The notes under the pieces: model-generated
The model's database searches: none
Seen by the model: the letters and a program-made list of their open reading frames with translations, nothing else
Told to the model about the DNA's origin: nothing
Position numbers and translations under genes: made by a program
Assembly (NCBI GenBank): GCA_000004985.1
Contig: GG738849.1
Length of the DNA stretch: 64,000 nucleotides
Strand: one strand, 5' to 3'
From: Naegleria gruberi
Lineage: Eukaryota
In this document: piece by piece, positions 17,307 to 20,568 of the stretch
Layout: each line of letters opens with the position of its first letter
Numbering within the stretch: position 1 is the stretch's first letter

Positions 17307-17377
17307 GCATTAGTAGTGTAACGGTATCATACCAGCCTTCCAAGCTGGTGACCCGGGTTCGACTCCCGGCTAATGCA
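17307..17377 (+). tRNA. tRNA-Gly (anticodon UCC).
   Basis: GCATTAGTAGTGTAACGGTATCATACCAGCCTTCCAAGCTGGTGACCCGGGTTCGACTCCCGGCTAATGCA folds as a cloverleaf. The acceptor stem is GCATTAG/CTAATGC, the anticodon loop is CTTCCAA and the T-arm is GGTTCGA. No CCA is encoded. Confidence 0.9.
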
Positions 17378-17588: not shown

Positions 17589-19308
17589 ATGGGTCAATCT
17601 CAAGAGAAAAGTACAAACACATTTTCAAACACTGATTCAAACAATAATATTGATGAAGTGGATGAATTGGAAGAATTAGATAAAATGATTAAATTGGACG
17701 GCTACACTCGAGACACTCCAACACCAGTAATGGATCCAACACTTTCAAAATTATTCCTCGGAGCAAGTAAAGGTAATTTTGATGAAATTCTCAAAATGGA
17801 TCACTCAGAATTGGAGCAATATGTGAATACAACAAACGATGGGGGTGTTACATTGTTATATCTGGCTTGTGAAAATGGAAGGGAAGATGTGATTAAATAC
17901 TTGTTGGCTGTGAAGGGATTGGATGTCAATTTTTTAGTGAGTTTGTTTTTGATAAGCAGTATTTAATGTTTGAATTTTGTCATTCAATTGAAGGAAGTAT
18001 GTAATTTTATATATTTGAATGGTTTCGAATAATGAAAAAGGGAGTAAGTAGTTGAATTACAAGAAAGTTTTAATTTTGTTTAAATACAGTTTGTAAGTAT
18101 ACATTTCTATGTGTTGTTCAGTAATTGAAAAATGAATAGTATGAGGTTGGTTTTTAATTTTCTATTTTTGGTAATTATTATAAAAGAAAAAAACAGTAAG
18201 TTGTAAACAATCAATTATTCTGATCCAACGAATATCTCTCTTTAGAAAAGAGATGGTGTAAGTTACATTTATCGAATCAATTCTTTTCTGAATACATTCA
18301 TATAGCTTGTAAGTATTTCATTTAAAGTTTAATTGGTTGTGAATAACTATTGTTAGGGAGTAAGTATACTTTTCAGTTATTGATATTTATTGTTATAACA
18401 ATATTGTAGAGTGTAAGTTAATAATATTAAACAAATTGTTGTAAAAATTCCAAATATAGAGTGTAAGTCAATCCTAAATTGTATAATTTTTTGATTAAAC
18501 TCTATTAATTCAGACACCTCTATTTGTTTCATGTAAACTTGGGAAAGTAAATATTGTAAAGTTATTGCTTCAAATGCCAGGAATTCAGGTAAATGAGGGC
18601 TTAACATTCAGTTCAGTATACTTGGACTCGTGTGGTCATGTTACAACCAGTCCACTCTATGCTGCATGTCAAGAAGGTCATTTGGAAATTGTAAAATTAT
18701 TATTGGACACTAAATCTATTGATCCTTATCGTGGAGAAGTTCATGATGCTGAAAATGCAATGTCATGTCTTGGAATTTCTATTTACAATGGAAAATGGGA
18801 AATTGCTTCCTTAATACTGAAAAGTATGACGTGTTGTGGTAGAAAGAAATCAGTTTTAATATTTAATAGGGATCCAATATCTGAAATTCTACTTGTATGC
18901 ATGAAAGGAAATGTTCAATTTCTGAAAGATTTATTGGAATCTAAATTGTTTGACCTTGATCACTGCGTAAGTTTCCCCATATTCCATGGAAATTATTCAA
19001 ATATGAATTAGTTTCCTTTGCATTTCTGTATTAAAAATAATGACAAGATTATGGCTAGCTTATTAATTGAGAATGGAGCTTCAACAAGTTTGAAATTTGA
19101 AAGATCAAAAGGATGTGGATATCTATTGTACAGTTTTTGTGGAAGAACATTTGATGATTTTGTAAAAATTAAGGATGGCAAGACTCCAATTGAACTGGCA
19201 AAGGAATTGAGATTTGATATTGGATCCTTGATGGGTGGAAGGTTGAAGAATAATTTGGGTAAATCATTTGACGCATTAAATGATGTCACTATTCAATTTA
19301 AAGAGTAA
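17589..19308 (+). CDS. Ankyrin-repeat protein with an N-terminal MGQSQ (possible N-myristoylation site). There are four exons; intron 1 (17937..18513) is unusually long and carries a GTAAGT tandem array.
   Basis: Exons read ...GGVTLLYLACENGREDVIKYLLAVKGLDVNFL | TPLFVSCKLGKVNIVKLLLQMPGIQ | SPLYAACQEGHLEIVKLLLDTKSIDP... | FPLHFCIKNNDKIMASLLIENGA.... These are ankyrin consensus segments (TPL..A...G..EIVKLLL). Confidence 0.7.
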
Positions 19309-19383: not shown

Positions 19384-20568
19384 TTACCAAATATTTGGAT
19401 CAGTGTTAGTTTCTAAATCTTTCAATTTGGAAAGTATTGTAATAATTTGGTTACTGACGTATTGATGGAAGGAAATGGCTTTGGTAATTTCAATATCAAA
19501 TGGTTCACCTAGTTGGGATTTGACTTGTTCAAGTTTAGTCAGTTTTTCAATGGATGGCTTGCAATTATTTAACTGATCGATAGCATTGGAAAGGGTTTCA
19601 ATGGATGGATTCTTCAAATCTTTGCATACATTTGAAAAAATTGGGCTAATACTAAAGATGGCATTAAAGAATTCTAATTTTTTAAGATTCTTGGAAGTAT
19701 TATCAACGTGCCTAGAATGAATATCTCTTGTGGATCTTGTATCACGGTACTTGCTCAATAATTGATGAGAAATTTCCAATGAGTTAATAAGTGATTGACA
19801 TGTTTGTGAGAAGGTTTCATTGTTTGAATATGTAGAACTGCCAATAATTGAAAATTTGTGACTACCAGAATTGATTAATTGTTCAATTTGAGAGATAAAC
19901 TTTTGAGCATCTTGATTATGTTGAATGATTGTTGGCAATTCTCTCTTCATTGGTTCGTAGACGGTGGCAACGTGAACTGCTAGACTAAACAATTTTCCAA
20001 TGAGATTAATGATGTTATCGTGATCAACTTTCATATCCTTTGAGATTGGTTTAAATAATGTCAAAGGTTGTCTGTATCCATGAATTTGTTGTGACACAAG
20101 TCTGTGATCAACTGAAGCCAAAGTATTAAATAATTCATATTTCTTCAGGAATGGAATATCAAAATTCTCTGTCAATTCCATCAAATCAATAAATGATTTG
20201 CAACTTGTATGAAATTCATTCAAATTATTCTTGAAATTTTCTACACTTTTTGGATATCTATCAAATTGAGAAATTACTTCTTGTAACTTCTTTATCAAAT
20301 CCTTTCTTTCTTGTCTCAACTCTGGATATTCAGAAAGATCAAATACATCCATCTGCTCCACCTTTTTAAATAACATTTCTCCCATCACTATAATTTCCTT
20401 CAAATTATTAAAATCACATTCATTGGTCTTTTTAATGGCTTGTTGAAGGAGAGCATTTGTTTCGGTTTTGTGTTTTTCAAATTTTTCTTTCACTGTCATC
20501 ACAACTCTTGTTGCCGATGATGATGATGGTGCTGATGGCGAAGGTTGCTGTTTGTAAGTAAAATTCAT
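19384..20568 (-). CDS. Hypothetical 394-aa protein with no recognised domain.
   Basis: A single long ORF with coding-like composition. Confidence 0.35.
   Translation of the reverse strand: MNFTYKQQPSPSAPSSSSATRVVMTVKEKFEKHKTETNALLQQAIKKTNECDFNNLKEIIVMGEMLFKKVEQMDVFDLSEYPELRQERKDLIKKLQEVISQFDRYPKSVENFKNNLNEFHTSCKSFIDLMELTENFDIPFLKKYELFNTLASVDHRLVSQQIHGYRQPLTLFKPISKDMKVDHDNIINLIGKLFSLAVHVATVYEPMKRELPTIIQHNQDAQKFISQIEQLINSGSHKFSIIGSSTYSNNETFSQTCQSLINSLEISHQLLSKYRDTRSTRDIHSRHVDNTSKNLKKLEFFNAIFSISPIFSNVCKDLKNPSIETLSNAIDQLNNCKPSIEKLTKLEQVKSQLGEPFDIEITKAISFHQYVSNQIITILSKLKDLETNTDPNIW

Follow-up and report, generated by a model that had tools for sequence, protein, structure and literature searches.

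Very small exons are known from several eukaryotes. Single exons of 3 nt are spliced in Drosophila homothorax (PMC7392893), human MAP4K5 (PMC8632122) and cytohesin-1 (PMC6314551), and plants have micro-exons of 1-15 nt that are commonly misannotated and that can occur as adjacent pairs, for example of 5 and 12 nt (PMC8831610). Longer runs have been described in human RPS24, which has three micro-exons in a row (3, 18 and 22 bp; PMC12207440), and in the micro-exon genes (MEGs) of Schistosoma mansoni, which have symmetric exons of 3-81 bp and introns of up to 5 kb (bioRxiv 10.1101/2023.06.21.545858). Other arrangements bring splice sites close together in different ways. At recursive sites, such as the ratchet points of Drosophila and the RS-exons of vertebrates, an AG abuts GTAAGT within a very long intron and nothing is left behind (PMC13149111), and in stwintrons, the spliceosomal twin introns of fungi, one intron is nested in a splice motif of another (PMC8469720). 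Introns can also be gained by tandem genomic duplication (PMC3265369, PMC4974935, PMC2891723). Here we describe a 577-nt stretch (positions 17937-18513, + strand) that separates the first two exons of an ankyrin gene of Naegleria gruberi NEG-M and in which donor and acceptor motifs are packed at intervals of about 50 nt. It lies in the 64 kb of DNA that we analysed (the window).

A preliminary description had framed the stretch as a single 577-nt first intron. This framing is probably wrong, and we consider it the likelier account, if only with modest confidence, that the 577 nt are a chain in which ten ordinary introns of minimal size alternate with nine symmetric micro-exons, which would together encode an ankyrin loop. 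The same description had suggested mini-introns joined head to tail with micro-exons between them, and this suggestion agrees well with the AG-free zones, the intron-like composition, the spacer lengths in multiples of three and an ankyrin-like 12-nt spacer that are reported below.

Paired splice signals in 17937-18513

Exon 1 of the ankyrin gene (17589..17936, + strand; 116 codons), recognised by its open reading frame, its translation and its Pfam Ank matches, ends ...GLDVNFL in phase 0 and breaks off in the middle of an ankyrin repeat. Exon 2 (18514..18966, + strand; 151 codons) starts TPLFVSC..., exactly at the TPL of the following repeat, and its frame is shut 16 nt upstream by a TAA at 18496-18498. 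For these reasons exons 1 and 2 must be spliced together across 17937-18513. An ordinary intron of 45 nt (18967..19011, + strand; GTAAGT...TTAG), which serves as a local norm for comparison, leads to exon 3 (19012..19308, + strand), whose last codon is the stop TAA at 19306-19308. The three large exons are open, as is the fully spliced coding sequence of 1140 nt, and the predicted ankyrin protein of 379 residues looks intracellular and reads ...DVNFL-EGFKKTKRDGLGSS-TPLF... across the stretch.

Donor-like hexamers, all on the + strand, occur at 17937 (GTGAGT), at 17997 (GTATGT) and at 18044, 18093, 18196, 18258, 18309, 18360, 18413 and 18463 (GTAAGT), and no GTAAGT is present on the opposite strand of 17937-18513. 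Every GTAAGT or GTATGT given in the preliminary description was found, within 0-3 nt of its position and on the + strand. One third of the + strand GTAAGT hexamers of the whole 64 kb (8 of 24) thus fall in these 577 nt, for which 5000 dinucleotide shuffles of the region gave 0.61 on average and 4 at most. The last five GTAAGT are spaced 51, 51, 53 and 50 nt apart, with a further 51 nt to the final acceptor, and the intron-sized period that had been noticed for them is real. All nine internal donors fit GTRWGT, and eight are perfect GTAAGT.

Acceptor-like motifs accompany these donors. An AG lies exactly 3 nt upstream of seven of the nine internal donors (five YAG and two AAG), compared with 0.11 expected from shuffles, and the remaining two are preceded by a TAG at 12 nt and by an AAG at 9 nt. 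Earlier it was stated that a YAG plus 3-10 nt precedes each donor; the association itself stands, at exactly 3 nt in most cases, and the rule has to be amended to include AAG and the 9- and 12-nt cases. Six of the seven AGNNNGTAAGT sites in the window sit in the array, and a three-unit pattern (GTAAGT, 34-52 nt, AG, NNN, GTAAGT, repeated) gave three matches in the array and none in shuffles of the window. The shuffle statistics on motif number, AG-NNN-donor spacing and the three-unit pattern rule out a chance cluster. Nor is AG-NNN-GTAAGT the general donor context of this genome, a possibility ruled out by its absence from all confident introns of the window.

Read as introns and exons, all on the + strand, the array begins with mini-intron 1 (17937..17993; 57 nt, GTGAGT...GAAG), whose previous AG is 34 nt before the acceptor and which brings in an in-frame stop if retained. 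A 3-nt spacer from acceptor to donor, micro-exon m1 (17994..17996; GAA, encoding E), separates it from mini-intron 2 (17997..18040; 44 nt, GTATGT...AAAG, AG-free for 43 nt). Micro-exon m2 (18041..18043; GGA, G), mini-intron 3 (18044..18089; 46 nt, GTAAGT...ACAG, AG-free for 22 nt) and micro-exon m3 (18090..18092; TTT, F) follow. On the far side of an untidy middle come micro-exon m5 (18246..18257; AAAAGAGATGGT, KRDG), a 12-nt unit with the "D-G" hairpin residues of ankyrin, mini-intron 6 (18258..18305; 48 nt, GTAAGT...ATAG, AG-free for 43 nt) and micro-exon m6 (18306..18308; CTT, L). The array is completed by mini-intron 7 (18309..18356; 48 nt, GTAAGT...TTAG), micro-exon m7 (18357..18359; GGA, G), mini-intron 8 (18360..18409; 50 nt, GTAAGT...GTAG), micro-exon m8 (18410..18412; AGT, S), mini-intron 9 (18413..18459; 47 nt, GTAAGT...ATAG, AG-free for 42 nt), micro-exon m9 (18460..18462; AGT, S) and mini-intron 10 (18463..18513; 51 nt, GTAAGT...TCAG, AG-free for 46 nt).

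The untidy middle (18093-18245) permits four in-frame parses, and we chose the one that uses consensus donors only. It comprises intron 4 (18093..18186; 94 nt, GTAAGT...AAAG), which is the least certain part of the array, the 9-nt m4 (18187..18195; AAAAAAACA, KKT), which is the least certain micro-exon, and mini-intron 5 (18196..18245; 50 nt, GTAAGT...TTAG, AG-free for 45 nt). Intron 4 is made up of 18093-18139 (47 nt, ending AATAG), the hexamer TATGAG and 18146-18186 (41 nt, starting GTTGGT), and within it 18150-18170 is 81% identical to the 5′ start of intron 2. It looks like two fused mini-introns whose junction has decayed, with GTTGGT as a dead donor, and this dead donor could be a glimpse of turnover in the array.

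Local introns for reference came from a conservative search of the rest of the window for introns between long open frames. The introns that it returned measure 41, 42, 45, 47, 50 and 61 nt; all are GTAAGT...YAG, and none has an AG at -5/-4. Measured against them, the 577 nt are indeed about ten times the local norm, as had been remarked. The units of the array (44-57 nt, and one of 94 nt) are of the local type in both length and signals, with GTAAGT as donor in eight, GTATGT and GTGAGT in one each, and acceptors of which seven are YAG and three AAG. Their interiors are likewise intron-like in composition (10% G and 9% C, compared with 8% G and 14% C in the reference introns). Working introns characteristically lack AG for some distance upstream of the acceptor. 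Such AG-free stretches precede each of the nine putative acceptors and extend for 22-46 nt (mean 37; joint P ∼2e-6 against shuffles of the region); between the AG of their GTAAGT donor and the acceptor, five units have no other.

Nine of the ten units contain a stop codon that is in frame if the unit is retained, and retention of intron 5 shifts the frame to a stop just beyond it. The five introns of the gene whose length is a multiple of three (17937-93, 18258-18305, 18309-56, 18463-18513 and 18967-19011) each contain an in-frame stop, and therefore their retention never yields a silent in-frame insertion. A similar pattern of stops is reported to exist in the short introns of Paramecium.

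We infer from these features how the array would be processed. Recognition would take place unit by unit across the intron (intron definition), and normal splicing would then remove each unit. Because an acceptor and the next donor are just 3 nt apart, neighbouring introns probably could not be engaged at once; their spliceosomes would probably exclude each other, and removal would be stepwise. The micro-exons that reach the mRNA would supply up to 14 residues to the beta-hairpin loop before the "TPLF" helix of the second ankyrin repeat. Skipping of a micro-exon, by splicing of donor k to acceptor k+2 over ∼100 nt, would be frame-neutral, because every micro-exon is a multiple of three. An unspliced unit would be punished by an in-frame stop, and in this way GTAAGT, AG and the AG-free zones would be maintained. 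Because failed splicing brings a stop into frame, the splice signals may have been kept while the interiors drifted, with occasional decay in the array of the kind suggested by the putative dead donor in intron 4.

Spacer content and the ankyrin loop

The nine spacers measure 3, 3, 3, 9, 12, 3, 3, 3 and 3 nt. All are multiples of 3, in phase 0 and free of stops, and they contain 33% G compared with 10% in the unit interiors (P = 3e-4). In total they amount to 42 nt and up to 14 residues (E, G, F, KKT, KRDG, L, G, S and S). Six of the 14 residues are charged, and charged residues are typical of micro-exon insertions into surface loops (PMC13149111). In size and frame the spacers are those of the micro-exon class, at most 30 nt long, placed between an AG and a GTRWGT, and frame-preserving.

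Ankyrin repeats have ∼7 residues, typically x-x-D-x-x-G-x, between the final "N" of one repeat and the "TPLH" of the next, and these residues form a beta-hairpin loop. Direct joining of exons 1 and 2 leaves two loop residues (F and L) in place of the usual ∼7. Addition of KRDG and one further codon produces exactly the canonical spacing, N-FLKRDGS-TPLF (N-x6-G-x-TPL). For the two-repeat segment, the Pfam Ank_2 score was 44.9 bits with direct joining, 48.0 bits with KRDG, 52.5 bits with KRDG+S and 45.5 bits with KRDGLGSS, and the Ank_4 score rose from 30.3 bits with direct joining to 44.5 bits with KRDG+S. Because the Pfam scores follow the inclusion of KRDG, the 12-nt spacer at least looks like real coding sequence. 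Inclusion of all micro-exons would give a loop of 16 residues, which is not out of line with the 17-residue contiguous loop of the next repeat. That neighbouring loop is encoded in exon 2 at 18595-18645 (+ strand), is intronless and reads VN-EGLTFSSVYLDSCGHVT-TSPLY; it begins E-G, as would the spliced loop (E-G-F).

One alternative is that the stretch is after all one long intron, in which 17936 is joined directly to 18514 and the internal site pairs are left over from a "codon plus intron" segment that was serially duplicated long ago, and are unused or used just in unproductive side reactions. We hold this to be unlikely, but it is to be taken seriously. Direct joining keeps the frame, and its product can be recognised as an ankyrin protein (the Ank_2 score of 44.9 bits), and faint traces of duplication are present. 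In addition to the resemblance between 18150-18170 and the beginning of intron 2, the 3′ end of that intron together with the following GGA resembles that of intron 7 together with its GGA, and the adjacent spacers m8 and m9 are both AGT, with the junction TAGAGTGTAAGT common to two neighbouring junctions. However, relics without function should have decayed like the interiors, yet no internal donor departs from GTRWGT and all but one are perfect, AG-free zones are found at all acceptors with the low joint probability given above, and the spacers are without exception multiples of three and G-rich. Moreover, strong donors placed 50 nt before good acceptors would be expected to be used under intron definition, and KRDG sits exactly at the residues that are missing from the two-residue loop left by direct joining. 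The transcript strings that these readings predict are TTTTTAGAAGGATTT, GATGGTCTTGGAAGTAGTACACCT and TTTTTAACACCT for a chain of micro-exons and TTTTTA joined to ACACCT for direct joining; RNA-seq of N. gruberi exists (PRJEB23822; PMC6142364).

The profile scores also bear on a reading of mixed use, which strikes us as distinctly unlikely. Here the constitutive, downstream part would consist of the KRDG exon, one or a few 3-nt exons and introns 5-10, and the upstream micro-exons m1-m4 would be skipped or alternative, the upstream part being usually removed as a single ∼309-nt intron (17937-18245) or else alternatively spliced. KRDG plus one codon has the best profile score (52.5 bits) and the all-inclusive form the lowest (43.9 bits). 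The splice signals divide along similar lines, introns 5-10 all having YAG and a perfect GTAAGT, introns 1, 2 and 4 ending in AAG, and intron 4 having the putative dead donor. Such a division is at odds with units 1-3, which match the rest in 3-nt spacing, in length and in AG-free zones, and enumeration of the parses suggests that donor 18196 would be productive only if acceptor 18186 were also used.

At the other extreme, all nine micro-exons of the proposed chain could be independently skippable, in which case the 577 nt would be a working cassette whose micro-exons, seven of them one codon long, are included in varying combinations and so alter both the length and the sequence of the binding loop of the ankyrin protein, in up to 2^9 isoforms. 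We find this idea rather doubtful. If it is true, the array is a protist counterpart of the schistosome micro-exon genes that is built from minimal introns, and it marks a local serial gain of "codon plus intron" in an otherwise intron-poor genome.

The locus in a second strain and the origin of the array

A metagenome contig from a second N. gruberi strain (ENA ERZ929261; 99.3% identical) carries the array from 18001 onward, with two single-nucleotide differences (18077 and 18329) that are both outside the motifs. Because this independent assembly has the array, it is not an assembly artefact. Elsewhere the contig has a T-to-K change in ankyrin exon 2 (position 18830), and its version of the neighbouring BAG-domain gene is longer by an in-frame insertion of 9 nt (TGATGATGG; window position 20520), with 397 residues compared with 394.

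Database searches returned little for the ankyrin protein. No close homologue was found in an index of 5.8 billion proteins, in which the best match was generic and 30% identical, and an exhaustive HMMER search with exon 2 gave just the open-reading-frame call on the second-strain contig and generic multi-ankyrin proteins. The downstream neighbour gene has no homologue besides itself, and consequently synteny provided no divergent copy of the locus. The ankyrin gene seems to be without an annotated protein model in the collections searched, unlike the neighbouring N. gruberi genes, which are all present under GenBank EFC accessions, and the micro-exon array may have defeated gene prediction.

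When metagenome contigs were scanned for the three-unit pattern, two chance-level viral matches were left among the matches listed after (GTAA)n had been filtered out. Microsatellites of (GTAA)n contain AG-TAA-GTAAGT and so mimic AG-NNN-GTAAGT arrays with TAA as the spacer, and they are a trap for motif scans for splice-site clusters. Long tetranucleotide microsatellites of this kind are very common in one group of metagenome contigs (L002-L121; e.g. Ga0123352-57, JGI20166J26741 and Ga0209629).

Inside the array region no known RNA family was found, the only one nearby being a tRNA-Gly (anticodon UCC; Rfam tRNA, 69 bits) at 17307-17377 (+ strand), on the same strand as the ankyrin gene, ∼210 nt upstream of its start codon and within the expected promoter region. 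A scan for bacterial promoters and terminators, which is irrelevant here, stayed at chance level.

It might be supposed from the searches that the gene is dead or unexpressed, a decaying lineage-specific ankyrin pseudogene whose array has no present function. In the collections searched there is no annotated protein, orthologue or transcript-derived protein, and the sole coding difference between the two strains, the change at 18830, is non-synonymous. We nevertheless judge this very improbable, given that the three large exons are open, the spliced coding sequence is intact and the signals are intact in the ten units and in the intron at 18967. In a pseudogene, AG-free zones and spacers in multiples of three would not have been maintained.

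The units of the array do not form a repeat at the sequence level. Tandem Repeats Finder (TRF) reported no tandem repeat of period ∼50 in the region, and global alignments of the interiors, with GTAAGT and the final YAG removed, gave a mean z of 0.29 against shuffles for unit versus unit, compared with 0.39 for unit versus unrelated intron and 0.73 for unrelated intron versus unrelated intron. Autocorrelation with the motifs masked was not significant (best z 3.5; 95th percentile of the shuffle maximum 3.55). No copies of the units were found elsewhere in the 64-kb window, and there were no convincing terminal inverted repeats or introner signature in the array, whose units have no mutual similarity (a result that covers this window only). 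The term "tandem array" is thus apt for the motifs and inappropriate for the units. A minisatellite or a recent tandem duplication of introns, both of which had been put forward, is ruled out by the missing TRF array, by interiors at noise level, which fail to align with each other, and by the lack of autocorrelation. The preliminary description had also held that units failing to align would mean chance. The units do fail to align, but a rule of this kind is too narrow, since the enrichment of the motifs far exceeds what chance can give.

Because the interiors do not align yet the signals are intact, we take the array to imply purifying selection on the signals and not recent copying. Its simplest origin would be that "one codon plus one intron" was gained locally, repeatedly and long ago, whether through duplication or through some other local process, although saturation of the interiors makes such an origin impossible to demonstrate.

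A role outside splicing, whether as a minisatellite, as a set of U1 small nuclear ribonucleoprotein sites that titrate U1 (an earlier proposal) or block premature cleavage and polyadenylation, or as a chance cluster, is scarcely credible, for although the perfect U1-complementary GTAAGT are dense and confined to the transcribed strand, there is no sequence-level repeat, chance is excluded, and the well-kept acceptors 3 nt upstream of the donors, the AG-free zones, the intron-sized spacing, the G-rich spacers in multiples of three and KRDG would all be left unexplained.

Several points weigh against a chain of ten introns and nine micro-exons. The use of the splice sites is putative, as is the expression of the gene, and the only genome available for comparison is so similar (99.3% identical) that conservation is uninformative. 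A 3′ splice site placed 3 nt from a 5′ splice site presents a steric difficulty, no internal donor carries the usual exonic G at -1, and the acceptors of introns 1, 2 and 4 are AAG instead of YAG. The parse that yields intron 4 and the micro-exons of 9 and 12 nt is a post hoc choice among four in-frame options. With all micro-exons then considered, the Ank_2 score is 43.9 bits compared with 44.9 for direct joining, and it is partial inclusion that scores best. Lastly, no annotated model or orthologue of the gene was found in the libraries searched, and ten guesses at an isoform or gene model were absent, by exact look-up, from a collection of 15 billion protein sequences.

Comparison with known splicing systems

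If the chain of minimal introns and micro-exons is real, it is the densest known packing of introns and exons, with ten introns and nine exons, seven of them of one codon, in 577 nt. It would mean that an intron-definition spliceosome copes with 3-nt exons in series and needs neither the special factors nor the long flanking introns on which animal micro-exons depend, and it would offer a natural test bed for the minimum distance between a 3′ and a 5′ splice site and for the order in which adjacent introns are removed. Ten introns within ∼45 coding nt, compared with a handful of confident introns in 64 kb by our conservative census, would point to a local, repeated process of gain; N. gruberi reportedly has ∼0.7 introns per gene. 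The locus also illustrates how such genes escape annotation, no protein model of it having been found.

Micro-exons and runs of them are already known, and the array would be a micro-exon cluster of unusual density. It resembles the described micro-exons in that these are tiny, have canonical flanking sites, are mostly in frame and place a few, often charged residues into surface loops (PMC13149111), and in that they are routinely overlooked by annotation, as in the present gene. Known micro-exons, however, occur alone or in rows of no more than two or three, mostly between long introns and with the help of dedicated enhancers or factors, whereas the array would contain nine in a row, seven of them of 3 nt, with flanking introns of ∼50 nt, their inclusion being predicted from the signals described above. 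With RPS24 and the MEGs it has in common consecutive symmetric micro-exons between normal exons, so that any combination is in frame and protein variants would be possible. It has no homology to either, and it does not belong among the MEGs, in which micro-exons make up most of a small secreted protein and long introns lie between them; here they would account for 14 of 379 residues (42 of 1137 coding nt), with introns of 44-94 nt that are among the shortest in the organism.

Recursive splicing and stwintrons had both been raised as possible models. Like a recursively spliced intron, the array would be removed stepwise through internal site pairs, with a 3′ splice site near a strong GTAAGT. 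It differs in that the sites are separated by 3-12 nt that would be retained in the mRNA, and in that the whole stretch is 577 nt, compared with tens of kilobases. A recursive splice site is therefore rejected: AG and GTAAGT are never juxtaposed, AGGTAAGT is absent from the region, every site has a gap of 3-12 nt and the stretch is short. The single overlap of CAG and GTAAGT (a G shared at 18196) regenerates no donor. As in a stwintron, more than one U2-type intron would have to be removed in consecutive reactions, but the introns of the array follow one another, and none lacks any of its signals. Nowhere does one intron break into the splice motif of another, and removal of any unit neither creates nor completes another site, which excludes this class as well. 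For the only stwintron candidate, G+27 nt+TAAGT at 18169-18201, an intron of 27 nt would be required, whereas the shortest local intron is far longer, at 41 nt.

Intron gain by tandem duplication is a plausible origin, since a short duplicated segment with splice signals adds an adjacent intron. The documented gains of this kind are recent and their copies still align, whereas the interiors of the array are at noise level, and any duplication would be old. We conclude that the array would work like a run of symmetric micro-exons and belongs to none of the families with which it was compared.

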